DNA of 64,000 nucleotides from a candidate division WOR-3 bacterium (GCA_027003075.1 JALWYV010000010.1:3900-67899); one strand, 5' to 3'. Positions 1,777-63,772 are shown, numbered from the stretch's first letter. A program made the numbers and translations. Notes: generated by a model from the letters alone, not told the origin.

Positions 1777-1788
1777 CGCGTCCTCCTT

Positions 1789-4008: not shown

Positions 4009-4083
4009 ATCTTCAATTTTAAAGCCGAAACGCGAATTTTTTTCAGGAAGTACGTTACGATGTGAAAAACATTTTAGAAATGA

Positions 4084-4104
4084 GGGAAAAATTTCCCATT
4101 TTTC
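4084..4104. terminator. Putative intrinsic terminator: short hairpin GGGAA-AAAT-TTCCC followed by TTTTT, between the trmFO 3' end and the SBBP gene start
   Basis: Read directly from the sequence. The stem is only 5 bp, so the call is weak. Confidence 0.2.
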
Positions 4105-4161
4105 ACCAAAATTTATCCGGCAAGTAGAGGCAAAACTGTTGATTAAACGTGTGTGAAGCTG

Positions 4162-8477: not shown

Positions 8478-8480
8478 GGT

Positions 8481-9545
8481 TTACCCTTCCATACGTCTCT
8501 CAATCACCTCTTCAACGTACCTGCGGACGTCCTCTAAACCTATCCTGCCAAGGGCAGGCTCAAAGAAGCCCATAACTATGAGCTTCTGGGCGTCTATACG
8601 GCTCAGCCCACGGCTCATAAGGTAGAAGATCTGCTCCTCGTCTATGGGGCCGACCGTCGCACCGTGGGTCGCCCTGACCTCGTCCGTCATTATCTCCAGC
8701 CCCGGTATGGAGTCCGCCCTTGCTCCGCTGTTGAGCAGGAGGGTATGCTCGGAGAGGTAAGCGTCCGCATGCTGGGCCTCGTGCTGTATATCTATCATGC
8801 CGTAGAGTACGGCCCTCGCCGTGTCCTTCAGAACCGCCCTTACCGTGGACTCCCCCTTGGTCATGGGGGCCGTGAAGTTGAGGTAGGTCGTCAGGTCGTA
8901 GTGCTGGGAGTCGTGTCCGAAGAGGACCTGAACGTCCTCAACCATCGCCTCGGCACCGACGGGTGTAACCTTGTGTTTGGCCATAACGAACTTCCCGCCG
9001 AACCACGAACCCACCAGTTTGCCTGTGCCTCTACCGCTGACGACGGCACCACGGTCGGCGAATATAACGCTGTCGTCGTCCATGGTTTCAACGGCACTAA
9101 GGATGAGGCTGGCGTCTTCCTCAACCTTTGCCTCCACCACTTCGGTGTATAGGCCGCTCCCGGAGACTTCAAGGACCACGGAAAGGGAACTCCCCCGTCC
9201 CATCTCAACCCTCAGGTGGAAATGTTCCCTGCCCTCAACGTTCACCCTTATGCGGGCAGGCTCTTCGCTCTTAAGACCCTCAGGCACCCTTATTATGAGA
9301 GGGGAACCGAGGTTCATGTAATGGAAGGCTACGAACTTCCACGCGTCCGGGGGGACTATGTCACCTATTTGGCCTTCCTCAAGGAGTTCAACCCCCTTCG
9401 GCAGATCCACCTGAATGTCCGCCTTTGTCTCCTCCGGATACACGTAATCCCCCCACCACGAAAGGGTCGTGTACTTGCTGGAGGGAAGGGGAAGTTCCTC
9501 GTAAAGCTTTTTTGCTCTCTCGCGTATGTTAGGAATTGCGACCAT
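8481..9545 (-). CDS. sufD: Fe-S cluster assembly protein, SufB/SufD family (SufD-like)
   Basis: 354 aa with a SufBD-type beta-helix core (...RAVLYGMIDIQHEAQHADAYLSEHTLLLNSGARADSIPGLEI...). No adjacent sufB, sufC or sufS. Confidence 0.65.
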   Translation of the reverse strand: MVAIPNIRERAKKLYEELPLPSSKYTTLSWWGDYVYPEETKADIQVDLPKGVELLEEGQIGDIVPPDAWKFVAFHYMNLGSPLIIRVPEGLKSEEPARIRVNVEGREHFHLRVEMGRGSSLSVVLEVSGSGLYTEVVEAKVEEDASLILSAVETMDDDSVIFADRGAVVSGRGTGKLVGSWFGGKFVMAKHKVTPVGAEAMVEDVQVLFGHDSQHYDLTTYLNFTAPMTKGESTVRAVLKDTARAVLYGMIDIQHEAQHADAYLSEHTLLLNSGARADSIPGLEIMTDEVRATHGATVGPIDEEQIFYLMSRGLSRIDAQKLIVMGFFEPALGRIGLEDVRRYVEEVIERRMEG

Positions 9546-25942: not shown

Positions 25943-28900
25943 GTGGCCATGCTACTAACAACGGTAGTAAGTGTAACATCTTTGGGAGCAACGAAGGTCG
26001 GGGAGCTGCGCTGGGGGAGGGAGATAGGAGTACCTATCTCAGTATCGCCAACTTACCTGCACTTCTACAGGGATGCAAACGGCCACGAGTACGTAGTGAC
26101 GAACATCCGTGGTGGTGGGGTACTTCTGATAAACGTGGACGATCCTACGAACCCGTACATAGCAAGCGTAGCACTGGCGGATCTGGACACGTTTAGATTA
26201 CTGGCGGATGCCACGGACGAGTTAGGGGTGGCAGACGTAGAGATATTCGGCAGGTGGATGTTCGTGGGTATAGGGAGTAGGAGTAGCGGAGGGATGGAGA
26301 TATGGGACATAAGCGACGGGACTGCACCTGCGAAGGTAGGGGTAGTCTTTTTTGATGGCAGCAGCATAGGGATAAACGGTGGGGTACATACGATATACGT
26401 GGACACCCTGAGGAGCAGGCTGTACGTGAGTTTGAACTTCAGATCCATGCACATCGTAAAGGTAGACACCAACAGACTGGCCGTGGGGGACGTTCTGGGC
26501 GCCCTTGACGTGAGGGATAGTATAAGCGTTGATAACGGAAGTTATCATCATGACATCTACGTCGTCCATGGGACGGGAGTGGATACGGTGTATACGTTTG
26601 CAGGATTCGGTGGCGATGATGTGTGTCCTCCCGGGAAGAAAGGTATAACGAGGTGGATAGTGGTGGACAACATCCTGGATAGAGTGATAGACAGTGGGTA
26701 CGTTGCGAAGTGTAGCGGGTACGGATTCTCGCACAGTGGAAGGATGTGGGGGGACAGCCTGCTGATAAACTTCTACGAGAGTGACGGGAGCGGCTTTGCG
26801 ATATACAGGTTAAACAAATCGGGTGGCATAAGCGTGGCAGAGACGCTGGTCTACTACAGGGCATCCGGTTTTGGGAGGGTGAGCAGCGTACACGAAGGGG
26901 AGATAAAGGACAGCCTGCTGTACGTGGCCTACTACTGGGGAGGGCTGAGGATATACGATCTCAGGGATCCTCGCAGGCCTGCACCGGTGGGGTACTACGA
27001 CTTCTACGACGAGGTAGAGGGGGAGCATATATTCAACGGAGCGAGCGACGTGAAGTTAATGGGCGGGTACATATACGTGGTGGGATACAGTGGATACCCT
27101 TACTACACTCCCGACAGGGACAGTGGGTACCTGTACATCTTTCAGTTCAACAACACCTACACCGTAGGTGAGGAGACGGTAGTGGTTAGAGGGTGCAAGT
27201 ACCCCACACACCTGAGGATAAACCTGACCGTTTCCGACACCAACGTTGAGCATGGGGTTGATATAGGCAGGTCCGACACCGCAGTCGTCAGATTGCCCCT
27301 TGGGAGCTACAGGGTAGAGGTACATCAGGAGTTTGACACCATAGAGGCAGTACTTGACACCTTCACCATGGTGGTGAACGGTACACCGGGTCTTTTCAAT
27401 AGCGGTGGGGAGTGCGCAGGGCTGAAGTACAACGGAGGGGATAAGGTGAAGGTGATCGGAGATGTGACCTCGGCGGTCTTCGTGAGCAACGGAAGGGTAG
27501 TTTACCTTGAGGGGAAGGGAAATGCGTGGAGTGGCCAGTACGTCCTCGGCAGAGGGGAGGAGGTGGCCATGGCGGGAGAAAGGGACGTCTGTATGGATCA
27601 CGACATCGTATGGATAAGGGGAGACACCCTGAAGTACGCCGCAAAGCCCATAGGAACGTCCGGGGCGATGGTGTTTGACAGCCTGCCCAGGGGTGGAAAC
27701 TGGAAGAACATAAGATTGCTGAACGTTGTAAGGGTGTGGGACACCCTCAACAACTACCTGATGCACGTCTTCTTCGTGGCGGATAGCACCAACGGAAAGA
27801 GCTACGTCGTCCACAACACCTACAGACCCTACAACATATGTCCCATAACCACCTTACCTGCTTTGATAGGCAGTGAGGTGCTGTGGGAGGTGAACGGAGC
27901 GAGTGGTCTGAGCGTGGACGAATGGAGCAGCGGAACTGAAAAACTCCACGTCGTATGGTTGAGCAGAGATACGCTCTACTACGCTAACTGGGATGGAACT
28001 GTGTGGGGCGATACCGCAATACTATCTGTGGGCAGTTTTTCTCGTGTTATAAGGGAGCCTACGGTTAAGGTAGAGGGTGGAGAGGTGTACGTCGGGTGGG
28101 TGGAGACCAACGGCGGCTGGCTCTTTTCTTCCATGACGGGATGGGGGATGTGGAGAAGCGGTGGTCTATGGAGGGACACCTTCCAGATCTACACTGCCCG
28201 TAGCATAAGTCGGGTGCATTATGCCGGTAGGGGGTACTACGTGATGGGGTATACGAACGGTTTCAGGAGTACCTTCACGTCCGAGTTGCTGGCACACGAT
28301 GTAAACAACAATATATCGTTCAACATGACAGATGCGCCCGGAGTTGAGGACGAGTGGCCGTACAGCAGCGTGAGTATAGGCTATCCCACCTACAACTGGA
28401 TCTTCAGGAACGTGTGGGAGGAGAGGGAAGGGTGGAGGAGATGGCTCAAGATAGGTGAGTACGAGTACACCACTCCGATAATGGGCTTCATGAGGGGTAT
28501 AACCCCTGTGTATCGTGGGAACGGTGTTTATGTGGGGGACAGTGGAGGTGTGTACATTGTGGAGGTGGTGAGGGGTGATGTGGCGTTACGGTTGGGTGGC
28601 AGGTACATGGGGAGGTACGGAGTGGGGGATATGGTGATCGTACCTGAGTGGGTTTATGAGGATGGGAAGGTGGAGATAGAAGGTGTTGGAGGTGAAGTGG
28701 TGCTGTACCACTTCAGCGGCAGGGGTGGTGGTACGGGCAGTGGTCCCATGGGTGTAGGCAGGAGGCCTATATCCTCTGCCGTTATAGGGCGAGAATTTGT
28801 AGAGGTTAAGCATGTGGGTGTGGTGAGAATATACGACGCCTCAGGCAGGGAGGTGAGGAGGGTAAAGGTTGAGGGCAAAGGTAAGGTTTACGTTGGTGAT

Positions 28901-28963
28901 CTGCCCTCAGGTGTTTACTTCTTGCGCTTAGGCAGGGAAACGATTAAGTTTATAAGGAGGTAG
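25943..28963 (+). CDS. Large secreted beta-propeller protein with LVIVD-type repeats and a T9SS C-terminal sorting domain
   Basis: 1006 aa. N-terminal repeats of the form ...GGGVLLINVDDPTNPYIASVALADL.../...GGMEIWDISDGTAPAKVGVV... are LVIVD-like. The C-terminus is RIYDASGREVRRVKVEGKGKVYVGDLPSGVYFLRLGRETIKFIRR. Third-position A/T-enriched codon usage differs from the backbone. Confidence 0.6.
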   Translation: MAMLLTTVVSVTSLGATKVGELRWGREIGVPISVSPTYLHFYRDANGHEYVVTNIRGGGVLLINVDDPTNPYIASVALADLDTFRLLADATDELGVADVEIFGRWMFVGIGSRSSGGMEIWDISDGTAPAKVGVVFFDGSSIGINGGVHTIYVDTLRSRLYVSLNFRSMHIVKVDTNRLAVGDVLGALDVRDSISVDNGSYHHDIYVVHGTGVDTVYTFAGFGGDDVCPPGKKGITRWIVVDNILDRVIDSGYVAKCSGYGFSHSGRMWGDSLLINFYESDGSGFAIYRLNKSGGISVAETLVYYRASGFGRVSSVHEGEIKDSLLYVAYYWGGLRIYDLRDPRRPAPVGYYDFYDEVEGEHIFNGASDVKLMGGYIYVVGYSGYPYYTPDRDSGYLYIFQFNNTYTVGEETVVVRGCKYPTHLRINLTVSDTNVEHGVDIGRSDTAVVRLPLGSYRVEVHQEFDTIEAVLDTFTMVVNGTPGLFNSGGECAGLKYNGGDKVKVIGDVTSAVFVSNGRVVYLEGKGNAWSGQYVLGRGEEVAMAGERDVCMDHDIVWIRGDTLKYAAKPIGTSGAMVFDSLPRGGNWKNIRLLNVVRVWDTLNNYLMHVFFVADSTNGKSYVVHNTYRPYNICPITTLPALIGSEVLWEVNGASGLSVDEWSSGTEKLHVVWLSRDTLYYANWDGTVWGDTAILSVGSFSRVIREPTVKVEGGEVYVGWVETNGGWLFSSMTGWGMWRSGGLWRDTFQIYTARSISRVHYAGRGYYVMGYTNGFRSTFTSELLAHDVNNNISFNMTDAPGVEDEWPYSSVSIGYPTYNWIFRNVWEEREGWRRWLKIGEYEYTTPIMGFMRGITPVYRGNGVYVGDSGGVYIVEVVRGDVALRLGGRYMGRYGVGDMVIVPEWVYEDGKVEIEGVGGEVVLYHFSGRGGGTGSGPMGVGRRPISSAVIGREFVEVKHVGVVRIYDASGREVRRVKVEGKGKVYVGDLPSGVYFLRLGRETIKFIRR
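28764..28963 (+). repeat. Copy 1 of a ~200-bp near-identical (about 94% nt identity) duplication encoding the T9SS CTD
   Basis: The sequence ggcctatatcctctgccgttatagggcg...aagtttataaggaggtag recurs at 30091-30290 with ~11 mismatches. Confidence 0.85.
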
Positions 28964-28967
28964 GACG

Positions 28968-30290
28968 ATGGTGATGGTACTTGTGGCGTCGTTTTCTCAG
29001 GTGTGGAGGGTAAGAGGATACTCCTTTCTGCTTCAACCTCACGTCACGAAGATTGATAACACCTGGATGCTGTTCTTGAGATCAAAGGGGTTATGGTATA
29101 TTCTAAACGACACCACGTGGGTGTTGAGGGACAGCACAGGTATGTTTTATCTTGGTCACTATGACAGCGACAGGGATGGGAGAGAGGAGTTGTACTTCTA
29201 CGCATTAAGAAACGGGCCAGATACATTCTACATCTTTGAGGCAGACAGTCTGGGAAACTTTGACATCACAAGAGACAAGGCCGTATACGTAGATATAGCC
29301 TCAGGGAGCAACATGATGATGCCGGGTCCTCCCACGTGTTATTTTGGAGATGCTGACAGGGATGGGTACAGGGACGTGATATGCACACCCTACGCCTACG
29401 ACAGTTCAGTAGTGGGATGTGAATTATGCCCCTGGGCAGTGATGTTTGAAAGTGTAGGCGATAACTTATGGGAGAGGAAAGTTTTGACAAGCGATGCTCC
29501 TCGTTATCCTGCTCCCACGATGATAGACAGCGACAGGGATGGTAAGCCTGAGTTTGTGGGCAGTGGAGTGATATACGAGGTTGTAGGGGATGACTCGGTA
29601 GAGGAAGTAGCGAGGTTTAACCTGCCCCGTGCCAGTTATGCCTTGATGGTAAACGACGCCGATGGAGATGGTAGGCCGGAGATAGTGCTGTACGGTTTCG
29701 GTGGTACGAGTGGTATTCTCTACTTCCACGTCTACATCCTTGAGGCCGATACCGATAACTCATGGAACGTTGTCAAGCATATGATTATTGATAGTAGTGG
29801 GGCTGTGTGGATGGGTAGCGGCAACAGTGGAGATATAGACGGGGATGGGAGGCCTGAGTTGTTGATGGGGGGGTTTGGAAGGGTAAGGGTGTTGAAAGCC
29901 GTTGGCGATGACGATTACGAGGAGATAGGGGTGTTGAACGGTAGCATCTCGGACGTATCCGTCAGCAACGTCTACGACATGGATGAAGATGGACTTATGG
30001 AGTTTGCCGTGTCCTATTATTACGGCAGTGGTGTAGGCACGACCGTGGGTTACGAGTACGCACCTTTGAGTGTTGGGGAGCGAGAGGATAGGCCTATATC
30101 CTCTGCCGTTATAGGGCGTGAATTTGTAGAGGTTAAGCATGTGGGTGTGGTGAGGGTATACGACGCCTCAGGTAGGGAGGTTAGGAGGGCAGAGGTTGAG
30201 GGCAAAGGTAAGGTGTACGTTGGTGATCTACCTTCAGGTGTTTACTTCTTGCGCTTAGGCAGGAAAACGATTAAGTTTATAAGGAGGTAG
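28968..30290 (+). CDS. FG-GAP / VCBS-repeat protein with a T9SS C-terminal sorting domain
   Basis: 440 aa. Repeated Ca-binding-like DxDxDGxxE loops (DSDRDGREEL, DADRDGYRDV, DSDRDGKPEF, DADGDGRPEI, DIDGDGRPEL). The CTD (...VYDASGREVRRAEVEGKGKVYVGDLPSGVYFLRLGRKTIKFIRR) is near-identical to that of the upstream gene. Confidence 0.65.
   Translation: MVMVLVASFSQVWRVRGYSFLLQPHVTKIDNTWMLFLRSKGLWYILNDTTWVLRDSTGMFYLGHYDSDRDGREELYFYALRNGPDTFYIFEADSLGNFDITRDKAVYVDIASGSNMMMPGPPTCYFGDADRDGYRDVICTPYAYDSSVVGCELCPWAVMFESVGDNLWERKVLTSDAPRYPAPTMIDSDRDGKPEFVGSGVIYEVVGDDSVEEVARFNLPRASYALMVNDADGDGRPEIVLYGFGGTSGILYFHVYILEADTDNSWNVVKHMIIDSSGAVWMGSGNSGDIDGDGRPELLMGGFGRVRVLKAVGDDDYEEIGVLNGSISDVSVSNVYDMDEDGLMEFAVSYYYGSGVGTTVGYEYAPLSVGEREDRPISSAVIGREFVEVKHVGVVRVYDASGREVRRAEVEGKGKVYVGDLPSGVYFLRLGRKTIKFIRR
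30091..30290 (+). repeat. Copy 2 of the ~200-bp CTD-encoding duplication
   Basis: See copy 1 (28764-28963). Confidence 0.85.
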
Positions 30291-33829: not shown

Positions 33830-35790
33830 TATAGAATCCTTTACTAAATTACTGAAGTGGAGGGAGAATGATACGGAAAATTAGGATAAGGAATTTTAGA
33901 AGTCTAAAAAATGTAGAAATATCACTAGAAGATAAACTTACTGTTTTGGTTGGTGAAAATGATACTGGTAAAACATCAATAATAGATGCATTAAAAATAG
34001 TTTTTGAAGGTAAAAATCCTGAAGTTGATGATTTTCATTGGGGGACAGATGAGATTAGTATAGAAGTTGAACTTAATGACAGGTATTTCGTTAAACAATT
34101 TTTAAAAAATGATGACAATAGTATAGAATCCAAAAGCATGATTAAGATAAAAAAGGAAGCTCTAGATAGGTTTCAGAATGAAGCGGATTCCATAGATCTG
34201 GATAATTTAAAAAATAACAACGAAAACGGGGAAATATATAAACGTCTTAGAGATTTAGCCAGCACTTTGTGTATCAAAATTAGGAGTAATAGCAAAATTG
34301 ACACTATTAAGGATAAAATTATAAACAAAATTAAAGAGTATAAAAATGTCGGATTTATTGAATGTAATATACCTACATATAATATCTATTTTCTGGATGG
34401 AAAACATTTCGAGAGTATATCTAAATTTTTTCAAGAAATTTTCTTTAAAGAAAAAAGTAAGAATATATGGAATGAAGAAGTTGAAGAGGGTAGGTCTATT
34501 AAAGATATAATTAAGGAAAAACTTGATATATATGCTGAAAATTTAAAATCGGAAATAGAAAATAAAGGTATAAAAGATAAGATAAAAGCTTTTCTTCCAG
34601 AGTTGCAGGAAATATCTATTAACCCCGTTTTTGAGCCGAGTAGTATAAAAATAGGTATTGAGGTTCAGCTTTTAGAAACTGGGGGCAAGAAGATCCGTGT
34701 TGACAAAAAGGGTGATGGAACGAAAAGAAGAATTACTATGGCCTTATTAGAATATAAAAGGTCTCAAGATAAAGAACCGTCACTCTATGTATTTGATGAG
34801 CCTGATACACATTTGCACGTAAAGGCACAGGTTGATCTATTAAATATAATAAGAAAATTCAATGAAAATGGAAAACAAGTAATTATAGTTACCCACTCGC
34901 CATTTATAATGAATGCTGTAAGGCCACAAGAAATAAGATTACTTTTATTACAGAATGGGGAAACCATCGTAAAATCTCTATCACTAGAAAAAGATATTGA
35001 GTGGGCTTTAAAGAGATTGGGAATTGAAAATGTAATATTATTTTTCTCACGAAAAATCTTGATTGTTGAGGGGAAAACTGAAGAGGTATTTATTCCTCTA
35101 ATGTATGAAAAATTGTTTAACACAAGCCTTTACAGCGATTTGGTTAAAGTAGTTAAAAGAGAAGGTATAACGGACGTTCCAAGATTTGCAAAAGTATTAT
35201 CTGAGTTTATCAAACCTAAAGATATATTTATATTGATAGATAATGATGCGGATGAGAGAACAAGGGATATAATAAATACTCTTCAAATACCGGAAGAAAA
35301 TATATTTAAGATAGGCAATAAAGAATTTGAGGACGCCTTTGAACCCGAAGTTATTTATGAAGCTTGGAAAATATTTACTGAAACTAGAGGAAAGAAAATC
35401 GGACCTAGTTGGACTATTAAAAATATAAGAGAATTAAGGGATAAATGTGTAAAAGATGGTTTAAAATTCAGTGAAAAATTAAAGGAGTTAAATAAAAAAG
35501 GTTCAATGAGAATGGATAAGCCGACGTTTGCTCAAGCTTTGGCCGAATATTGCAATAAGGAACATTTACCCGAGCAGTTTATTGATTTGTTGAATAAACT
35601 AAGATATTAAATAGAATGAAAATACCTTTATTAATGGTTCATATGAATGTTCTAGCTGTTATTATAAACCCCCAATTTAAGATTTGCTGGTGTAAGCAAT
35701 CTTCACGTTTATATACTACTCTTCCGATTCTCCGATTTGACAGAGCTATTTTTGTAGTGGGATCTTCGTTCCTTTGTAAGATATCTTGCT
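33830..35790. mobile_element. Compositionally foreign AT-rich islet (~2 kb) carrying the OLD-family nuclease gene; no integrase or direct repeats recognised
   Basis: GC content shifts abruptly immediately after the PBP2 stop (33798) and returns near 35790. The single cargo gene is a defence-type nuclease. Confidence 0.55.
33868..35610 (+). CDS. OLD-family ATP-dependent endonuclease (N-terminal ABC-type ATPase + C-terminal TOPRIM); class-1 OLD / GajA-like
   Basis: 580 aa. Walker A GENDTGKTS, Walker B plus H-loop LYVFDEPDTHLH, TOPRIM glutamate motif ILIVEGKTEEVF, and DxD motif ILIDNDADE. The gene is strongly AT-rich (many AAA/AAT/ATA codons) in an otherwise GC-rich window. Confidence 0.85.
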   Translation: MIRKIRIRNFRSLKNVEISLEDKLTVLVGENDTGKTSIIDALKIVFEGKNPEVDDFHWGTDEISIEVELNDRYFVKQFLKNDDNSIESKSMIKIKKEALDRFQNEADSIDLDNLKNNNENGEIYKRLRDLASTLCIKIRSNSKIDTIKDKIINKIKEYKNVGFIECNIPTYNIYFLDGKHFESISKFFQEIFFKEKSKNIWNEEVEEGRSIKDIIKEKLDIYAENLKSEIENKGIKDKIKAFLPELQEISINPVFEPSSIKIGIEVQLLETGGKKIRVDKKGDGTKRRITMALLEYKRSQDKEPSLYVFDEPDTHLHVKAQVDLLNIIRKFNENGKQVIIVTHSPFIMNAVRPQEIRLLLLQNGETIVKSLSLEKDIEWALKRLGIENVILFFSRKILIVEGKTEEVFIPLMYEKLFNTSLYSDLVKVVKREGITDVPRFAKVLSEFIKPKDIFILIDNDADERTRDIINTLQIPEENIFKIGNKEFEDAFEPEVIYEAWKIFTETRGKKIGPSWTIKNIRELRDKCVKDGLKFSEKLKELNKKGSMRMDKPTFAQALAEYCNKEHLPEQFIDLLNKLRY

Positions 35791-52365: not shown

Positions 52366-53553
52366 GTTTATGTTCAGGGCGTTGGCAAAGCCGACGTAGG
52401 AGGCGAGGATGTCGTTCCATCTGCCCAATATCAGAACGGTGGACGTGAAGGTAAGGGCGTTGACTATATCCTTGAGTATGACCACCCTTCCGAGGTAGTC
52501 GGCCGTTGAGTACTTCTGAAAGATGGAGTCAAGGGCTATAAAGCCTATGGACGTGAACACCCCTCCCGCTGCGGCGATAGGGAGCAGGAGCCATAGGTTT
52601 GTGGTGAGGGCGAGGCCGAATAGGGAGAGGGCGAGAAAGAAGATACTGTTCCACAGGTGTTTGTACTCTCTGGAGGGTAATACCCTGCCTGCAAGATAGG
52701 ACCCGAGGAAGAGACCGAGACCGTAGATACCACCGGCCACGCCCAACTGGGAGGTAGAAGTATGCCCTATCTTCTGGAGTTTCACTATGCCGAGGATGTA
52801 GGTGGCACCACCCACGAGAGATATGAGAGCGGCCGCCATCAGGGAGTGGAGCAATATCTTCCGCTGCCTGACGAAGTTTATGGCCTCCTTTATGGCAGCG
52901 ATGTAGTGTATCTTTGCCCTGTTCCCCGTAGGTTTAATGTACTCACCTGAGACGGCGAGGAATATGAGGAGGAAGGCCGATGCGAAGAAGGTAAGAGAGT
53001 CAACCGTAAGGCCCACCTCCCATCCCTCGTATCCGAATCCTTTCCAGAGATGCTCGTCCGATATTATCCCGCCGAAGAGTATTCCAAGGCCCGTTGCTAT
53101 CCTCCCCCAGAAGCTCATCAGTCCGTTTATGACGGCTATCCTATCCCGGCTGCCCGCGACGTGGACCACGACGCCGTTCTTGGCGGAGTTGAAGAGTACC
53201 GTAAACGTAAAAACGGCAAAGACCGAGGCGTAGACCACGACCATCTTCCCCGTACTCTTGAAGAGAAAGGGGATGGAGAGTACTATGAGGCCCCTCATTA
53301 CGTCGGCGAAAGCCATGAGGTACTTCCGGTTGAAACGGTCGGATATGGCGCCAGCGATGGGGCCGAAGACGGCAACGGGTATAACCGTCCAGAAGGCCAG
53401 AAATCCGTACTCCGTGGATCCCGTGGCGTGGAGACCCAGAAGGCCGAGTATGGCCATGTTGTTTATACGATCCCCCAGCTGGGATATGGCCTGCGAAAAC
53501 GTCAGTATCGCGACGTTCCTGTCCTTCAGAAGTTTAACTTCCTGTATGGGCAA
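52306..53553 (-). CDS. Major facilitator superfamily transporter
   Basis: 415 aa with 12 TM segments and the MFS motif region GAISDRFNRKYLM. Confidence 0.75.
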   Translation of the reverse strand: MPIQEVKLLKDRNVAILTFSQAISQLGDRINNMAILGLLGLHATGSTEYGFLAFWTVIPVAVFGPIAGAISDRFNRKYLMAFADVMRGLIVLSIPFLFKSTGKMVVVYASVFAVFTFTVLFNSAKNGVVVHVAGSRDRIAVINGLMSFWGRIATGLGILFGGIISDEHLWKGFGYEGWEVGLTVDSLTFFASAFLLIFLAVSGEYIKPTGNRAKIHYIAAIKEAINFVRQRKILLHSLMAAALISLVGGATYILGIVKLQKIGHTSTSQLGVAGGIYGLGLFLGSYLAGRVLPSREYKHLWNSIFFLALSLFGLALTTNLWLLLPIAAAGGVFTSIGFIALDSIFQKYSTADYLGRVVILKDIVNALTFTSTVLILGRWNDILASYVGFANALNINLVAIGSFVILVLLIRRLLR

Positions 53554-53598
53554 GGGATGGGGATTCTACGGCAGGAATCTGCCCTAAAATTCCGGGCG

Positions 53599-55386
53599 AT
53601 GTTCCTGCTTTTGTTGGCCTATACTCACGACTTTTACATGGTACCCATGCGGGATGGCGCGAGGTTGGCGACGGACGTTTACAAGCCCACGATATACTTC
53701 GGGGAACTGCACACCATCCTCGTAAGGACACCGTACGAACGTACGGCCGTGGGTTTGAACGCCTTCATACCCTACATAACCGACGTTAGGGGGTACGCCC
53801 TCGTGATACAGAGCGTGCGGGGGTTTCAGGGTAGCGAAGGGGATCCGCAGGTGTTCCGCACGGACGCGTGGGGGGAGCTTCAGGACGGGTACGATGCCGT
53901 GGAGTGGATAATATCTCAGGACTGGTCCAGCGGTAAGGTGTGCGGGTCCTGGTTCTCCGCCATGGGAATAACCCAGTACCTCCTTGCCGGTACGTACCAC
54001 CCGGCCTACAAGTGCGCCGTCCCCCTTGTGGGTGCAGCGGACGTCTATCACTACGCCGCCTTTCAGGGTGGGGAGTTCAGGAAGAACCTTGTTGAGGGCT
54101 GGCTTACCGGCCTCGGAACCCCCTTCCTCATAGACTCCGTGACTTCTCACCCTCTCTACGATAGCACGTGGTACATCCTTGACCTCAACCGGAGGGTGTC
54201 CGGCGTCAACGTCCCCATGCTCCACTTCGCCGGCTGGTTTGACCTCTTCCTTGAGAGCCAGATTGAGATATGGAACAAACTCCAGTTTCAGGGTGGTCCC
54301 CTGGCGAGGGGAAACCAGAAGTTGATAATCGGCCCGTGGACCCACCTTGCCTTCGGGCAGACGGATCAGGGGGACATATCCTTTCCATCCAACGCCTCCC
54401 TCCCCGTCACGGATCTGGTGGATATGATAGCCGACTGGTACGACTACTGGCTTGACGGGGAGGATAACGGAGTTATGGACTGGCCTCCGGTGAAGTTCTA
54501 CATCATGGGGATGAACGAGTGGGCTACGGCCGATACCTTCCCGCCGCGGGGCGTCTTCTACCGCCGCTGGTACCTCCACGGGGATGGCACCCTCAGGCTC
54601 TACCGCCCCTCCGCCCCGGACAGCTTCTCCACGTACGTTTACGATCCCAACGACCCCACCCCCTCCATCGGAGGGAACGAGATGGACCTGCCCGGTGGGG
54701 ATGGGCCAAAGGATCAAAGACCTCTACTCTCCCGGAGCGACGTTCTCGTCTTCCAGACGGACCCCTTACCGGATACCCTCATCGTGATAGGGAGCATAAG
54801 GGCCAAACTCTACGTGGAGAGCGACAGGTACGATACGGACTTCGTCGTCAGGATAGCGGACGTTTACCCCGACGGTACGGCCATGTTGGTGGCCGACGGT
54901 ATCATAAAGGCCCGCCACAGGTACGGCTTTGACAGGGAGGTCCTCCTGACACCGGGGCAGATAGACTCGGTTGAGGTGAAAGTATGGAGTACGGCCTGGG
55001 CCTTCCTTCCGGGGCATCGCCTGATGGCTATAATCTCATCGGCCAGCTATCCACGCTTTGAGGCCAACCCCAACAACGGAGGCCCCTTCGTCCGGGACGA
55101 CACCCTCCGCCTCGTGGCCACCAACCGTATATACCATTCCCCGGTCTATTCCTCCTACCTCGCGATACCCATGCTTCCCTCTACGGGTATTCAGGAGTAC
55201 GTGGACCTTCCGGGGGTGCCGGACTATACACTTAAAGGGAACAGGATATGCACCGACGTGCGAGCGGAGGTGTACGACCTCTCCGGGAGGCTAAGGTTCG
55301 CAGGAAAGGGCTGCTCCGGAAGGCTACCCACGGGCGTGTACTTCGTGAGACTACGCAACGAGACCCACAGGGTTATAGTCCGGTAG
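53599..55386 (+). CDS. CocE/NonD-family (S15 X-Pro dipeptidyl-peptidase-like) hydrolase with a T9SS C-terminal sorting domain
   Basis: Start reassigned to an internal ATG at 53599, so the frame continues MFLLLLAYTHDFYMVPMRDGARLATDVYKP.... The 5' part of the track ORF overlaps the MFS gene in antisense. Alpha/beta-hydrolase domain plus C-terminal beta-sandwich. Terminal ...RAEVYDLSGRLRFAGKGCSGRLPTGVYFVRLRNETHRVIVR. No convincing signal peptide was found, so the start is uncertain. Confidence 0.65.
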   Translation: MFLLLLAYTHDFYMVPMRDGARLATDVYKPTIYFGELHTILVRTPYERTAVGLNAFIPYITDVRGYALVIQSVRGFQGSEGDPQVFRTDAWGELQDGYDAVEWIISQDWSSGKVCGSWFSAMGITQYLLAGTYHPAYKCAVPLVGAADVYHYAAFQGGEFRKNLVEGWLTGLGTPFLIDSVTSHPLYDSTWYILDLNRRVSGVNVPMLHFAGWFDLFLESQIEIWNKLQFQGGPLARGNQKLIIGPWTHLAFGQTDQGDISFPSNASLPVTDLVDMIADWYDYWLDGEDNGVMDWPPVKFYIMGMNEWATADTFPPRGVFYRRWYLHGDGTLRLYRPSAPDSFSTYVYDPNDPTPSIGGNEMDLPGGDGPKDQRPLLSRSDVLVFQTDPLPDTLIVIGSIRAKLYVESDRYDTDFVVRIADVYPDGTAMLVADGIIKARHRYGFDREVLLTPGQIDSVEVKVWSTAWAFLPGHRLMAIISSASYPRFEANPNNGGPFVRDDTLRLVATNRIYHSPVYSSYLAIPMLPSTGIQEYVDLPGVPDYTLKGNRICTDVRAEVYDLSGRLRFAGKGCSGRLPTGVYFVRLRNETHRVIVR

Positions 55387-57358: not shown

Positions 57359-58264
57359 GTGTTTTCTCCCTTAGACTTCCCTCCCGTGGGAATGCGCAGG
57401 GTTTACGAGTTCCTGTTTCATGCCGTTCTGTTTCTATCTGCGTCCGTAACCATCCTTACCACCGTGGGTATAGTTGCCATCCTGCTCTACCAGAGCGCCC
57501 TTTTCTTCAGAGAGGTCTCCATCGTTGAGTTCCTCACGGATACCCAGTGGACGCCCCTGTTTACGGAGAAGCACTTCGGCATCCTCCCCCTCCTTGCCGG
57601 CACCTTTCTGACCTCGTCCATAGCCATGCTCGTGGCCATACCCGTGGGTCTGCTCATAGCCGTATTCCTGAGCGAGTACGCCTCCTCACGGGTCCGTTCC
57701 TTCGTCAAGCCCACACTTGAGATCCTCACGGCCATTCCTACCGTGGTTTACGGGTACTTCGCCCTCCTGTTCGTCACGCCCCTACTGAAGAAGGTAATAC
57801 CCAACATATCCGGTTTCAACGCCCTTTCTCCGGGCATAGTTATGGGGATAATGATCCTTCCGATAGTGACCTCCCTCAGCGAGGACGCCCTGAGGGCTGT
57901 GCCGAGGAGTCTCAGGGAGGCAGCCTACGCGCTCGGCGCGGATCGGTTCACCACGGCCGTAAAGGTAGTTATACCCTCCGCCCTATCCGGCATCGTGGCG
58001 GCGTTCATTCTCGGTATATCCAGAGCCATAGGGGAGACCATGATCGTGACCATAGCAGCCGGTCAGAGGCCTGTCCTTACCCTAAACCCCCTCGTCCCCA
58101 TAGAGACCATGACGGCCTACATAGTTCAGGTGAGCCTCGGAGACGTCCCCACGGGTACGGTGGAGTACCATACCATATTCGCCGTGGGCCTCGCTCTGTT
58201 CGTAATTACCCTCGTTTTTAACATAGTCAGCTACCTTCTCAAAAGGCGTATGTGGGAGAGGTGA
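57359..58264 (+). CDS. pstC: Phosphate ABC transporter permease (PstC-type; PstA not excluded)
   Basis: 301 aa with 6 TM segments. [31 protein letters not shown] and EAA loop [12 protein letters not shown]. Not followed by pstA or pstB. Confidence 0.7.
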
Positions 58265-58329
58265 TATAATTCTGCCATAAAATTCAATCGTGGGCGTATT
58301 TATCCGTTACCCGTAACAAGGAGGTAGGT

Positions 58330-59139
58330 ATGCTTGTTGTTTTGCTCTTTGACCTCGGTTATCCGGATGGTATAGTCATGTACAACGAAGAAGAGGGGAG
58401 GATATGCATAGACTGTGCAGCCCTATGGCGTATAAACAGAGAAGACACCCTCTTTAAGAAGTACTGCGACACTCCATATGCTGATCAGAAATATTCTCAT
58501 ATGAAAAGATACGCCAAGTGCGTGAATACGAAAAGGAAGGGGAGAATAAATCCTCCACCCCTTCCCGAACCTCCCCCCGGCGTGGAGTGGTATCAGTTTC
58601 CGTCAGTTGGGGAACTCCCCTTTGATCTGAAGGTCCTCTCTACGAAGTACATACCGGACACGCCTACGACCTACAAACGGATGTACGGGGACGGGGACGT
58701 GTTCGTTGTAAAGAACCCTCACGACACGAGCGTGTACGTTTTGCTGGAGTGGAAGAGGGTAGAAGAGATTGAGCCTCTGGTTAGGGAGTACTGGTACGGA
58801 GACGTAGAAGAGATCTTCTTCTCGGTGAGGATTCAGCCACCTTTGAAACCTCTGCAAGAAAAGAAGAACGAGCGCATAGTTCTGTTCTTCTTTATGCCGG
58901 ACCTTCCCCTTATTGATTCGCTTCCTCCGGAGGTCGTCAGGTACGACCATCAACGGCTGCTAAGGATGGTGAAGCGCACAACATGCAGTAGCGACTCCTC
59001 CTGTGAGATCAGGGCGAGGTTCGTTCGGAGTGAGACAGGGTATATAGATGGGGCAACGAAACCCACGGCGTCCGTTGAGTTCTTCCTTGCTCAGCACGAT
59101 AGTGTTGTGGTATACATTTCGCCTATATACGGGAGGTAG
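58330..59139 (+). CDS. Hypothetical protein, family 'A' (paralog of 60291..61103); no recognisable domain
   Basis: 269 aa. A conserved N-terminal segment LLFDLGYPD...ALWRxNREDTLFKKYCD, a Pro-rich linker PPPLPEPPPGVEWYQ, and a C-terminal ~170-aa domain ending HDSVVVYISPIYGR. Preceded by aacaaggaggtaggtATG. Confidence 0.55.
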   Translation: MLVVLLFDLGYPDGIVMYNEEEGRICIDCAALWRINREDTLFKKYCDTPYADQKYSHMKRYAKCVNTKRKGRINPPPLPEPPPGVEWYQFPSVGELPFDLKVLSTKYIPDTPTTYKRMYGDGDVFVVKNPHDTSVYVLLEWKRVEEIEPLVREYWYGDVEEIFFSVRIQPPLKPLQEKKNERIVLFFFMPDLPLIDSLPPEVVRYDHQRLLRMVKRTTCSSDSSCEIRARFVRSETGYIDGATKPTASVEFFLAQHDSVVVYISPIYGR

Positions 59140-59167
59140 AAAACTATGGCATTTAACGATCATATGC

Positions 59168-59202
59168 TTGACAAAATATGTATTATATCACATTATTGTA
59201 TA
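59168..59202 (+). promoter_or_regulatory. Candidate promoter (TTGACA -17 nt- CATTAT, also an overlapping TATAAT) that would give a leaderless transcript starting at ATG 59203
   Basis: Hexamers read directly in AT-rich sequence preceding the lipoprotein gene. Confidence 0.25.
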
Positions 59203-60273
59203 ATGATTAGATCTAAAGTGTTGAGCATTTTAGGTCTGGTCTCAATAGCGTTTTTGCTCATCAGGTGTAAGCAACCTCCCGAATCCGATGGTCTGGGTAC
59301 TATTTTCTGGACAGCGTATAGCGGCTTAAGGGTGATGCAGCCTCCGGCTATAGGGAAAAACGGATACGCCTACGTTGTGGGAGTAAATGGTGAGATATGC
59401 TATTACAATATGTTTGGCAAGAACGTTGGGTGTAACGATACACCGAAGAGGAGAGGGGAACGTATATTTGCCGCACCCGTGATCTGGTGGAACGGGGACG
59501 GAAGGATTATGGTCGTTACCGACCGAGGAACAGTCTACGCTTTCGGCAAGTATGTACCTTCTATCATTTGGAAAACCACTTTAGACGTTCCGGTGTATAA
59601 TACACCGGCAGTGTATGGGGACAGCACCATGTATATAACGGCTAACAGGTACGTTTTCCGCTTGAACGTAAGGAGTGGTGAAGTACTATTCAGAAAGGAG
59701 ATCTGCGAATCTTATGACCCCTCGGTCGGCTCCGAAGGGACGGTGTATTTAGCGTGCAAGGATGGGAACGTCGTTGCTATGGGTGTAGAAGGGAAAATTA
59801 AGTGGAAGGTCAATCTTGGAAAGCGTATCGTGGGGAGGGTTATTCTGGATGGGGACAGTGTAAGGACAGATCGCCTGCTCATTCCCGTGGAGGGTGGGGA
59901 GCTGTACGTTCTCAGTAGCAGTGGGCGGGTAGAGGGTGTATCCGAATATTACGGTAGCGAGATATTCGTGGATAGGGAGGGAAACGTATATTCGGAATGG
60001 CAGGCCATAGGGTTGGGAAGGGACGTTGTACTGGTGCATGATGGTACCCAGATCAGGTTGGTTGACAGGTTCAGTGGTGCCGATGTCTGGGTGTATAAGC
60101 TTCCATTTGATGGGGCGAGAAGGGTTTTTGCCAATATGGGGTTTGGGAAGTTGTGGCTTGTTAGTGAGGATGGGAGGCTGGCGATGTTGAGCCTGAACTT
60201 TAACTACGACAACACGTGGTGGGGGGTAAGGCATCATGATAGGGCTAACAGTGGATGTCCTTGCGACCCGTAG
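59203..60273 (+). CDS. Secreted PQQ-like beta-propeller lipoprotein (BamB-like fold)
   Basis: Start taken at MIRSKVLSILGLVSIAFLLIRC (lipobox). Repeated ...GTVYAFG..., ...GEVLFRKEI... and ...GNVVAMGVEGKIKWKVNL... blades. Confidence 0.55.
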   Translation: MIRSKVLSILGLVSIAFLLIRCKQPPESDGLGTIFWTAYSGLRVMQPPAIGKNGYAYVVGVNGEICYYNMFGKNVGCNDTPKRRGERIFAAPVIWWNGDGRIMVVTDRGTVYAFGKYVPSIIWKTTLDVPVYNTPAVYGDSTMYITANRYVFRLNVRSGEVLFRKEICESYDPSVGSEGTVYLACKDGNVVAMGVEGKIKWKVNLGKRIVGRVILDGDSVRTDRLLIPVEGGELYVLSSSGRVEGVSEYYGSEIFVDREGNVYSEWQAIGLGRDVVLVHDGTQIRLVDRFSGADVWVYKLPFDGARRVFANMGFGKLWLVSEDGRLAMLSLNFNYDNTWWGVRHHDRANSGCPCDP

Positions 60274-60290
60274 AAAACAAGGAGGTAGGT

Positions 60291-61103
60291 ATGTTTGTTA
60301 CTTTGCTCTTTGACCTCGGTTATCCGGATCATATAGTGAGGTACTACGAAAATTCGGGGATGTGGATTAACTGCAGTGCTTTGTGGCGTATGAACAGGGA
60401 AGATACCCTTTTCAAGAAGTACTGCGACGAGAGCGACACCGTTGGAGCGAGTAGCGTGTTCGTACCAACGAGACCGCGATCAAACGTTCCTCCGCCTCCC
60501 GAGCCCCCTCCCGGTGTGGAATGGTACCAGTATCCGGATTTTCAGGCAAGGAGGGAAATACCCTTTGAGTTCAGGGTCCTCTCTACGAAGTACATACCGG
60601 ACACGCCTACGACCTACAAGCAGATGTACGGGGACGGGGACGTGTTCGTCATAAAGAACCCTCACGACACGAGCGTGTACGTATCGCTGGTATGGATGCG
60701 GGTTGACGAACTTGAGCCTCTAATAAGAGAGTACTGGTACGGGGACGTAAAGGAGATCTTCTTCTCGGTAAAGATACAGCCGCCCCTGAAGTTCCCGGAG
60801 GATAAGAGGAGAAGGATAGAGATAGATAGCGCCCTCATAAGTTTGGTCTTCTACCTTCCGGATCTTCCGCGCATAGACTCGCTCCTTAGCCTGGGCGATC
60901 AGGTATGGATTGACTTTCAAACCCCCCTCAGGATGATACGATTGTTCCGATGCATGGACAGTTCCGGCTGTGCTATGAGGGTGACACATGACGTCAGGAC
61001 GGGTCATATAGATGGAGTGATGAAACCCACGGCGTCCGTTGGGTTCATCCTCGCCCCGCACGATAGTGTCGTGGTCTACGTTTCGCCTATATACGGGAGG
61101 TAA
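60291..61103 (+). CDS. Hypothetical protein, family 'A' paralog 2
   Basis: Start at MFVTLLFDLGYPD..., preceded by the same aacaaggaggtaggtATG as paralog 1. Conserved blocks with 58330..59139 throughout and the same C-terminus ...HDSVVVYVSPIYGR. Confidence 0.55.
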   Translation: MFVTLLFDLGYPDHIVRYYENSGMWINCSALWRMNREDTLFKKYCDESDTVGASSVFVPTRPRSNVPPPPEPPPGVEWYQYPDFQARREIPFEFRVLSTKYIPDTPTTYKQMYGDGDVFVIKNPHDTSVYVSLVWMRVDELEPLIREYWYGDVKEIFFSVKIQPPLKFPEDKRRRIEIDSALISLVFYLPDLPRIDSLLSLGDQVWIDFQTPLRMIRLFRCMDSSGCAMRVTHDVRTGHIDGVMKPTASVGFILAPHDSVVVYVSPIYGR

Positions 61104-61106
61104 GAG

Positions 61107-62585
61107 ATGGTGTTACTAATCCTGAGTATCTTTGTTACTGAAGTACGTCCGAGTCCTCATAAAAAAGCTGAAACTGAGGTAGCTGTAGATAGAATAACTG
61201 GAGTAGTAGCCGTGACGTATATGAACATAGACACAAAAGAAGTGGAGGTGGTTGGAAGCCGCAACCTTGGTAGAGATACCTTCTATTTCTATAAGTTTAG
61301 AGTTATACCAAGGAACCCTGATAGCTGTAAAATAGGGGATCCGGCTATAGTCTGGAGTGGTAAACCTGATACTTTCTTCCTTGTGTCCGTTGAATACTGC
61401 CCGGATCCTCAAAATCCTTATGGGAGCGAAGTCATGTTTTGTGTAATTTCTATGGAAAGAGATAGTGCGGGAGATTGTGAGTACGTGGATTACGAATCCT
61501 ACTGGAACTTTAAAGACAGGCCCGATGTAGTAGTAACGTTCCCCGGAAAAGCTTGGGTATCGTTTGTAAAGGCTCATTCGCCGTATGGTGATATATCAGC
61601 TTATGTCTACGAGCGATTAGGACCATCATCTTGGATGTTAAGATATATAACTCCTTCCCTTATGAGAACAACCGTTGCTCTCCTTTCCGCGGAAGTGTGT
61701 CAAACAAGGAAAGGACCAGCTGTAGATATATGGCTAGCTTACGACAATGTCAGAGATCTTTATAGGCCGTATATTTATGTTGATAAAAGCTGGGATAGTG
61801 GCCGGACCTGGATAGGATATAAAGATTTTATAACCTACAGCAACCCGACAGGTGATCTGACGTGTATGATTCCTAGAGCCCACAAAAAACTCAAGAGCTT
61901 TTATGCATGCAATGGAGCCTGTGACGTGGTGATAGGGTATGTGACGCCTGATCCTTCAGATCCAAATAGGTGCTGGTCCAATATAGCGTACACCATAAAG
62001 GGTGATACGACAGCTTTCTGGAACATAGCCCATATAAACCCGGTATATGATATGGATATTATGCCAGCGGTGAAGGTGGATAGAGATGGGAACATTTATG
62101 TATTGACCATGCATGGGCTTGTGACATGGAAACCATGGCTGTACACGATTAGCCCCGGCTCACTATCTCCCAGTCGCGTCGGTGGGGATGTACGAACTTT
62201 AACTCCGCCCTTTAGTGTCATATATGGTAATGAGATGCATATAAACCCACTCTACGGTTTTCTAGACTATATAGGTTTAGATTTGGACAATGAAGGCTAT
62301 TTTTACGCTACCTGGACAGGTGCCGACGCTCCGGGACAACCTACAAAGATATACTTCGCTACCAATAAAGACACTTCCACGCTCTCTTCCTCCCCTCAGC
62401 CTATCAACACCGTATTCAAATCCAGAGAATCTGTAGATCTACCTCCCGGAACGTACGTTTACGATGCCCTTGGACGGAGAGTTGCCGTTGTAGGCAACAG
62501 AAAAGTCTTTCTGAAACCGGGAGTGTACTTCGCTAAAAGGGGCAGCAAGGTGCTTAAATTTCTCGTAATAGGAGGTAAGAGATGA
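61107..62585 (+). CDS. BNR/Asp-box (sialidase-like beta-propeller) protein with a T9SS C-terminal sorting domain
   Basis: 492 aa. Asp-box SWDSGRTW. CTD-like end ...LPPGTYVYDALGRRVAVVGNRKVFLKPGVYFAKRGSKVLKFLVIGGKR. GC is lower than the backbone. Confidence 0.5.
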   Translation: MVLLILSIFVTEVRPSPHKKAETEVAVDRITGVVAVTYMNIDTKEVEVVGSRNLGRDTFYFYKFRVIPRNPDSCKIGDPAIVWSGKPDTFFLVSVEYCPDPQNPYGSEVMFCVISMERDSAGDCEYVDYESYWNFKDRPDVVVTFPGKAWVSFVKAHSPYGDISAYVYERLGPSSWMLRYITPSLMRTTVALLSAEVCQTRKGPAVDIWLAYDNVRDLYRPYIYVDKSWDSGRTWIGYKDFITYSNPTGDLTCMIPRAHKKLKSFYACNGACDVVIGYVTPDPSDPNRCWSNIAYTIKGDTTAFWNIAHINPVYDMDIMPAVKVDRDGNIYVLTMHGLVTWKPWLYTISPGSLSPSRVGGDVRTLTPPFSVIYGNEMHINPLYGFLDYIGLDLDNEGYFYATWTGADAPGQPTKIYFATNKDTSTLSSSPQPINTVFKSRESVDLPPGTYVYDALGRRVAVVGNRKVFLKPGVYFAKRGSKVLKFLVIGGKR

Positions 62586-63772
62586 AAAAAACACTTTTGT
62601 TTCTGCCCCTGCTTTTGCTCCTCTCCTGCAGGGAGGAAGTTTACGAGGATGGTGAGGTACTGTGGAGCATAACGTTGAGGGGGCCAATACGGGGGGTCCC
62701 AGCCTACCACGACGGCGTCATATACGTGGGCAGCGACTGGAACCGTCTCTTTGCGATTGAGGAGGATGGGTATCCCATCCTGTGGCAGAGGGTACACGGA
62801 GACTTCACGGGGGCGCCCGTGGTGTGGGAGGACGGCACCGTAACCGCCACCGACTGGTGGGGCAACATGTACACCTACGATCTCAAGGGCAATCTCGTAT
62901 GGGGAAAAACGGAGGGGGCTTGGAACGAGTACCCGGCCCTGTATGGAGAAAAGATCATCGCCATACATGAGGTTGACACGGCAATCACGACTCTGGAGTG
63001 GATAAACAGAGATGGAAACGTGGGGAGGGTGGATACCTTCCCGTCGGGAACCGGAGCTTTGGGTAAAGCCAACGTGATCGTTAGATCCGATGGCACGGTC
63101 GTGGTGTCATCCGCACTTTATGATGTCATTTTCAAAATCTACGAGGACGGAAACATAGTAAAGTACACCGTCCCCGGACTCGTGGGCCATGCATCTACAG
63201 ACGACGAAGCCATCTACGCCGTAACGACCGGGAGCATGGGAACCTACCTTGAGAAGATCGGACCGGAGAGTTGGGATTACGTTAAGATAAACGAAGACAC
63301 GTATCCAATAGACTTCACCGCCGCCCAGCCGATTATAGACAGCCGCGGTAGGGTTATAGTACTTACGGACAAAGGCCTTTACGTTTTCACGAAGGGACTC
63401 TACCCTCTGTGGTCCTACCCCCTATCCTCCTGCAGGAAGTTCAGAAGTTGCGGTGTTATGATGCCTACTCCCGTGGTCGGTAGATCCGGGAACGTTTACT
63501 TCGCCTGCGGCTCCAATCTCATGGCCGTATCTGAAGATGGACGACTTTTGTGGTTTAAAGATTTCTCAGAGGATACCGTAAAGGTTGAGAGCAACTACTC
63601 TGAAATTAGCGGCCTCCTCCTCATAGACAACCGCCTGATAGTCACCTCCTGCAACGGCAAAATTTACTCCCTGTACGTCAACGACACCTACGACTACGAT
63701 GCACCGTGGCCCATGTTTCAGGCTAATCCGAGGAGAACGGGGAAGGTGAGGGTTCCCTTTAACTTCCCGTAG
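62582..63772 (+). CDS. Secreted PQQ-like beta-propeller lipoprotein with a C-terminal WPMFxxNPxRTG motif
   Basis: Signal peptide with lipobox (LLLLLSCRE). PQQ-type repeats. The terminal YDAPWPMFQANPRRTGKV is typical of PQQ-like-domain outer-membrane proteins. Confidence 0.6.
   Translation: MKKTLLFLPLLLLLSCREEVYEDGEVLWSITLRGPIRGVPAYHDGVIYVGSDWNRLFAIEEDGYPILWQRVHGDFTGAPVVWEDGTVTATDWWGNMYTYDLKGNLVWGKTEGAWNEYPALYGEKIIAIHEVDTAITTLEWINRDGNVGRVDTFPSGTGALGKANVIVRSDGTVVVSSALYDVIFKIYEDGNIVKYTVPGLVGHASTDDEAIYAVTTGSMGTYLEKIGPESWDYVKINEDTYPIDFTAAQPIIDSRGRVIVLTDKGLYVFTKGLYPLWSYPLSSCRKFRSCGVMMPTPVVGRSGNVYFACGSNLMAVSEDGRLLWFKDFSEDTVKVESNYSEISGLLLIDNRLIVTSCNGKIYSLYVNDTYDYDAPWPMFQANPRRTGKVRVPFNFP

Follow-up and report, generated by a model that had tools for sequence, protein, structure and literature searches.

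The question raised by this locus is what five tightly packed genes encode behind pstC in a candidate division WOR-3 bacterium from a hot spring (GCA_027003075.1), where two copies of a gene without recognisable domain (A and A') are interspersed with two genes for PQQ-like beta-propellers (P and P') and with one further gene (B). The window, that is the whole stretch of DNA analysed, comprises 64 kb and is identical to ENA scaffold JOHN19-1_SAMN10217877 scaffold_180, and the five genes, called as open reading frames (ORFs), all lie on its plus strand. Their order is conserved at deep divergence, they are under purifying selection and recombination has left footprints among them. The cassette is quite possibly, and in our opinion still tentatively, a lineage-specific, recombination-variable envelope-protein operon of thermophilic WOR-3-type bacteria.

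The cassette comprises A (58330-59139, 269 amino acids (aa)), an orphan-family protein; P (59146-60273, 375 aa), a PQQ_2 (BamB-like) beta-propeller of the P type; A' (60291-61103, 270 aa), the second paralog of the A family; B (61107-62585, 492 aa), with one canonical Asp-box and a weak C-terminal domain (CTD) resembling those found in type A type IX secretion system (T9SS) cargo; and P' (62582-63772, 396 aa), a PQQ_2 beta-propeller lipoprotein of the P' type. The intergenic distances A/P, P/A', A'/B and B/P' are 6, 17, 3 and -4 nt. Terminators and promoters are not in excess within the cassette, and in its vicinity neither structured RNAs nor tRNAs nor tandem repeats were found. The same five ORFs, closely spaced after pstC, had been proposed from the DNA alone (hereafter the sequence-only reading) and were recovered by the ORF calls.

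In the window the order is pstC, A, P, A', B, P' and era, the last on the minus strand. A sister metagenome (L005) and the WOR-3 metagenome-assembled genome (MAG) S141_60 (L007) present the window's flanks and contain one A gene, with P' 3 nt later. Other WOR-3 MAGs with different flanks (L002, L003 and L004) contain three tandem A genes and then P'. In L008 an A homolog of 41% identity is followed by a P'-type propeller ortholog (61% identity), and in L010, a genome of 40% GC, a P-type C-terminus (an ortholog fragment of 35% identity, E 6e-26) lies directly upstream of an A homolog of about 26% identity, directly after which a B homolog was identified (31% identity, E 8e-23). The locus L009 was too short for its context to be read. 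A PQQ_2 gene adjoins A in every readable context (the window, L005 and L007, L002 and L003, L008, and L010), down to an A identity of about 26%, in agreement with the link between A and PQQ-like genes that had been proposed; an A gene without a neighbouring propeller was looked for across these contexts and none was found. On comparison of these sequences the conserved unit would be better parsed as P, A, an optional B and P', with one to three copies of A, and the window as an extra upstream A copy followed by the conserved unit P-A'-B-P'. The insertion after pstC holds in this species; in L002, L008 and L010 the cassette has other surroundings. Downstream of P' in L002 (11527-12573) is a 348-aa protein with a CKLCH motif of the CXXCH haem-binding type near its N-terminus, the rest looking beta-barrel-like, and no Pfam hit is on record for it.

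The A family is small. A and A' share 59% aa identity (E 8e-102), both carry the N-terminal, proline-rich and C-terminal motifs singled out by the sequence-only reading, and their ribosome-binding site (RBS) and start context AACAAGGAGGTAGGTATG is identical, with 5 mismatches across the first 56 nt. They are evidently true paralogs under purifying selection, to judge from these comparisons. The pairwise ratios of non-synonymous to synonymous substitution (dN/dS) of the cassette genes are overall about 0.14-0.43, a range that indicates real and constrained genes; against relatives they are 0.27-0.43 for A and 0.15-0.25 for A'. At the nucleotide level A' is 97% identical to its counterpart in L005 and 96% to that in L002, and it is the ortholog of the body of the single A gene of the sister strains. 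The most conserved portion of A is the C-terminal domain.

Among 5.8 billion clusters a word-indexed search found five proteins matching A, and among 1.84 billion representatives an exhaustive HMMER search with an A profile found seven, the latter including a PKD-repeat protein (P0011) matched via a short motif only; a second A-profile search returned no further members. The family comprises about nine distinct full or partial members, the two copies of the window included, with aa identities to A from 84% down to 25-26%, and apparently all of them are found in thermophilic WOR-3-like MAGs. As had been stated beforehand, A and A' have no recognisable domain: no sequence match was obtained in Pfam, NCBIfam, PHROG, PADLOC or the PDB, and a clear match to a well-known family was looked for without result. 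A evidently belongs to no described family, as far as these searches tell. Scans of JGI metagenomes for more loci, with the A profile and with degenerate DNA matching the C-terminus of the P type as probe, found nothing, and a literature search found nothing on this cassette.

P and P' are PQQ-like propellers as proposed, both passing the gathering score of PF13360 (PQQ_2; 50.9 and 56.9 bits against 27.6). Their best local match to each other covers only 75 aa at 27% identity (E 4e-4), and each has its own orthologs, the P-type in L010 and the P'-type in L008; by sequence they are evidently two old, barely similar PQQ_2 subtypes. The proposed duplication of a two-gene A+P module does not hold on this evidence. 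The lipoboxes that had been assigned to both are canonical in P' (LLLSC, kept in four orthologs and seen in those of L002, L007 and L008) and non-canonical in P (LLIRC, after a hydrophobic leader). The C-terminus of P is WGVRHHDRANSGCPCDP, and WPMFQANPRRTG lies near the C-terminus of P'. Neither protein approaches the PQQ-dependent dehydrogenase model TIGR03075 (16.3 bits against a cutoff of 480).

The allele of P' is a mosaic, as seen when the window (62582-63772) is compared with L007 (10634-11830) and L002 (10301-11479). The first 40 or so and the last 40 or so residues match those of the conspecific L007 (88-100%), whereas the central 200 or so match L002, a different WOR-3 species, at 87-100% and L007 at 35-65%. 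Against L007, dS is 0.88 for P' (72% aa identity) and 0.06-0.07 for pstC and A'. As dN/dS of P' is only 0.22, an allele replacement is indicated rather than relaxed selection.

This pattern bears on whether P' is the BamB of the organism, A being a lineage-specific accessory of the beta-barrel assembly machinery (BAM) and the remaining genes unrelated neighbours. P' is a lipoprotein of about 390 aa with a canonical lipobox and a propeller of the PQQ_2/BamB family, each of the related genomes that were examined contains it, and the cultured WOR-3 isolate is diderm (PMC12285271). Both propellers, however, are far under the cutoffs of the BamB equivalogs TIGR03300 (cutoff 285: P 45.2 and P' 28.5 bits) and NF008351 (cutoff 423: P 28.2 and P' 22.3 bits). 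Between strains that are otherwise nearly identical P' is hypervariable and its allele a mosaic, which is not expected of a housekeeping assembly factor. One operon holds two divergent propeller subtypes, whose partner is an orphan protein of predicted jelly-roll type and not BAM genes, neither bamA nor bamD being seen near the cassette in the 64-kb window and the short loci read. Identity of P' with BamB is in our view distinctly improbable.

The third type of protein, B, was less clearly assigned. Its lower GC had been pointed out and was found again: 44.2% (41% at third codon positions, GC3) against 48-53% in A, P, A' and P'. The GC3 value suggests import of B from a lower-GC relative. It had been described as a BNR/Asp-box protein; it contains one canonical Asp-box (SWDSGRTW at residue 228, with SRDGGWSW at that site in L010) and matched no BNR-family hidden Markov model (HMM) of Pfam or NCBIfam, even at E<=10; a second Asp-box, SNDYGNTF in the L010 homolog, is degenerate in B. 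No family of Pfam or NCBIfam was matched at all, a two-species profile of B gave no sequence match in the PDB, and the word-indexed search returned no homolog. The T9SS CTD that B had been given fell short of the curated threshold: the tail, which ends ...GVYFAKRGSKVLKFLVIGGKR and is similar to CTDs found elsewhere in this genome, weakly matches TIGR04183 (13.3 bits, E 0.06, under the cutoff of 23) and the gingipain RgpB CTD (PDB 5hfs; E 0.8-0.9). Unlike known cargo of this class, B has no canonical Sec leader. B had also been regarded as embedded in the cassette, but its homolog in the distant L010 genome follows an A homolog too, and the slot after A is evidently its normal place in the family, going by that one comparison. 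In the window A' and B are in one reading frame (61101-61109, with TAA GAG between), and stop-codon readthrough would fuse A' to B; the arrangement is not kept in L010, where the counterparts overlap in different frames.

The differences between strains can be traced to direct repeats. The 5' ends of A and A' form two plus-strand copies of a repeat (58315-58399 and 60276-60360) that are 86% identical over 85 nt in a repeat search, the first containing the RBS (AAGGAGGT, 58318-58325), the start codon and the first codons of A, and the second the RBS, start codon and first codons of A'. An identical run of 28 nt is found within them (58341-58368 and 60302-60329), and the P-to-A' junction GAAAACAAGGAGGT, located in the second copy, is kept at the P-to-A junction of L010. 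L005 and L007 are without 1961 bp that are present in the window. The one A gene that they have is chimeric. At its beginning, from upstream to about codon 4, 16 informative sites in succession agree with A; of the 226 informative sites in all, 203 agree with A'. The crossover maps inside the 28-nt run. The A' ortholog of L002 has a 5' end of the A' type, so the chimera of the sister strains is the derived state. By this comparison, recombination between the direct repeats evidently deprived the sister strains of P, of the body of A and of the 5' end of A'.

A second, shorter repeat surrounds B. The 14-mer GGAGGTAAGAGATG occurs only twice in the 64 kb, on the plus strand at the two B junctions, and each copy provides the gene that follows with its RBS and start: the left one (61096-61109) covers the A' stop, the RBS and the B start, and the right one (62571-62584) the last codons and stop of B, the RBS and the P' start. 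In the sister strains and in L002, A' abuts P' without B. These alignments identify the presence or absence of B as an indel bracketed by the 14-nt repeat.

The three tandem A genes of L002 are separated by two near-identical 107-nt spacers (8461-8567 and 9378-9484) whose 3' parts show a weak similarity to P of the window at its 3' end (p 0.002 and 0.15 for the two, with the shared RBS taken out). Propeller genes that were deleted may have left them behind, an idea that was set aside as marginally supported.

In its 5' repeats that mediate deletion, its copy number of 1-3 and its one mosaic allele, the locus resembles recombination-variable loci of tandem surface paralogs. It differs from them in that neither a dedicated recombinase nor an invertible promoter nor an archive of silent cassettes was observed, and the variation was seen between strains. 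The variable number of A genes, the recombination between paralogs, the mosaic propeller allele and a GC under that of the flanks would also suit a competition or defence island (polymorphic toxin-immunity or anti-phage) with the tandem paralogs as alternative cassettes. PADLOC, however, matched none of the five proteins, domains of toxins, nucleases, peptidases or secretion systems were not identified in them, relatives on viral contigs were not found, and conservation of A peaks in the C-terminal domain rather than leaving there a variable tip. Such an island is very improbable.

What A itself may do was approached through its predicted structure. The protein is predicted to consist of an N-terminal, cysteine-containing alpha/beta mini-domain of about 65 aa, a proline-rich linker and a C-terminal beta-sandwich of about 170 aa ending in SPIYGR. 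A model of A made with AlphaFold2 (AF2) from nine sequences, distant members added, reached a predicted local distance difference test (pLDDT) of 63 and a predicted template modelling score (pTM) of 0.54; it contains the alpha/beta domain at about 13-66 (pLDDT about 80), the disordered linker at 68-93 and the beta-sandwich at 99-264. A run on the six close homologs only was unusable (pLDDT 39.5). Foldseek against the PDB retrieved carbohydrate-binding modules (CBM4, 11, 28, 30 and 61), MAM, the ligand-binding domain (LBD) of ephrin receptors and viral jelly-rolls, with E from 3e-5 to 1e-2 and template modelling scores (TM-scores) of 0.2-0.45. The best matches of the predicted sandwich are the CBM, MAM and ephrin-receptor folds (E 3e-5 to 5e-3); they come without sequence similarity and with low TM-scores, and viral capsid jelly-rolls match about equally. 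The C-terminal domain of A is predicted to be a jelly-roll-type sandwich, nothing more specific.

Two other proposals for A were discarded. A PKD domain at about 98-135 obtained an hhalign probability of 6.7% over 33 columns, and a local WxFGDG-like motif explains the match to P0011. A viral or capsid origin was rejected as IMG/VR contained no relatives, PHROG gave no matches for A or B, and the BFVD matches of A were generic jelly-rolls.

In the envelope-operon reading, PQQ_2 propeller genes border an A gene and are apparently coupled to it in translation, P-type upstream and lipoprotein P'-type downstream, and the optional Asp-box/CTD protein B between A and P' would be, when present, an additional surface propeller. 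A would be exported despite lacking a canonical Sec leader and would be stabilised by two to four disulfides, and its jelly-roll (CBM-like) sandwich on the proline-rich tether would serve as a binding module. The propeller lipoprotein or lipoproteins would supply the scaffold and its anchoring in the membrane, A, synthesised in concert with them through translational coupling, would dock on them, and the result could be a surface or periplasmic complex for ligand capture or adhesion. The exposed parts of such a complex would be varied between strains through recombination among paralogs and alleles.

Several points weigh against this. The contexts compared share ancestry, so the adjacency of A and propellers is synteny and not independent co-occurrence. 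The P-type (3-510) and B-type (1366-2305) homologs of L010 need a frameshift to be read, from assembly error or pseudogenisation; the intervening A homolog is intact. Both assignments of B, to CTD and to BNR proteins, fall under curated thresholds, and given the pLDDT of 63 and the TM-scores of 0.2-0.45, CBM-like amounts to jelly-roll sandwich only. Neither A nor A' has a recognisable leader of the Sec or Tat kind, a lipobox or a transmembrane segment; the hydrophobic run of A is about 6-7 residues with a maximum KD19 of 1.2-1.3, and the strong conserved RBS together with an upstream in-frame stop fixes the start, so that the ORF cannot be extended upstream. Thermophiles can form disulfides in the cytoplasm, and the cysteines of A could bind metal instead.

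The missing leader and the fixed start would be natural if A were cytoplasmic and worked there, for instance as a regulator with a metal-binding Cys4 site, as a chaperone or as an assembly factor, co-transcribed with exported propellers, and the CxxC...C...C of the N-domain in A-type members could bind zinc. This alternative is possible but unlikely, as the pattern of the cysteines speaks against it. Cysteine counts of the full-length members are all even (6, 4, 4, 4, 4, 6, 8 and 8): A has six in three candidate pairs and A' four, the 26/64 pair being jointly lost. Cys 26 and 64 are jointly present or jointly absent across the family, and A'-type and A3-type members lose exactly these two of the four, which would wreck a Cys4 site but fits two independent disulfides. 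Extra cysteines also come in pairs (84/89 and 86/102, in the two most distant members), and C219 and C225 are invariant, forming a C-x5-9-C loop within the sandwich. The genome is cysteine-poor, 18 of the 55 non-overlapping window ORFs of at least 150 aa having no cysteine, whereas the five cassette proteins are all among the top 11 of the 55 by cysteine content, together with recognisably secreted proteins. P and P' have leaders, and the diderm envelope of the cultured isolate also suits export. A proline-rich tether with a jelly-roll sandwich is typical of envelope proteins. On balance we infer that A is probably extracytoplasmic and disulfide-bonded. The sequence-only reading had left A cytoplasmic or without a definite compartment; the even, paired cysteines and the cysteine-rich rank make the first half of that statement questionable.

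Other proteins of these genomes also speak for export of A. About six of eight with T9SS-like tails start like A and B, with a methionine followed by 6-10 hydrophobic residues and no K/R n-region; in B this N-terminus is MVLLILSIFVTEV, without charged n-region. Proteins with such a tail, most of them beginning in this way, were observed at 25943-28963, 28968-30290 and 61107-62585 of the window and at 300-3197, 3334-4734 and 5921-7741 of L002. The short uncharged N-termini may be a lineage-specific style of signal peptide, or start-codon miscalls. A bolder form of the envelope-operon reading, which we consider rather improbable, would have A, and B with it, exported via such a very short uncharged hydrophobic signal used for CTD-type surface cargo, and A with the two propeller lipoproteins would form an undescribed phylum-specific envelope machine of strain-variable composition. 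The lipobox-like N-terminus of one family member (P0002) was discounted as evidence of export, the gene looking 5'-truncated and having no good RBS.

To our knowledge the WOR-3 phylum is barely cultured and its cell envelope essentially uncharacterised. A phylum-restricted orphan family of about nine members, with an obligate genomic partnership to BamB-like propellers, is now defined, and the remodelling of its locus between co-occurring strains is documented. The locus is best filed as a lineage-restricted, variable envelope or surface operon around beta-propeller lipoproteins, with no sign of a new mechanism; it stands as a well-documented cassette of hypothetical proteins and, given cultures or expression systems, would be a definite object for structural studies and fractionation. 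Export of A without a classical leader, if true, would bear on signal-peptide recognition in the WOR-3 lineage.

The upstream flank, outside the cassette, is pstC (57359-58264, plus strand), whose identity as a phosphate ABC permease gene is supported by TIGR02138 (281.7 bits, cutoff 196). It is not adjacent to pstA and pstB as in a pstSCAB operon: tblastn searches of the window, L001, L005 and L007 found no pstA paralog, and the ABC genes near pstC are UgpE-like and generic. With neither pstS nor pstB adjacent, pstC is solo, an arrangement also observed in L005 and L007.

Two other genes of the window, located upstream of pstC, were observed. An OLD-family nuclease (33868-35610), comprising an AAA_15/AAA_21 ATPase and an OLD-like TOPRIM domain, may serve in defence against phages and has no relation to the cassette. 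A hydrolase of the CocE/NonD family (53050-55386) has a T9SS-like tail just under the cutoff of TIGR04183 (20.2 bits); its ORF comprises 778 aa, much more than the 595 aa of the gene as called, and the additional N-terminal part is probably untranslated.

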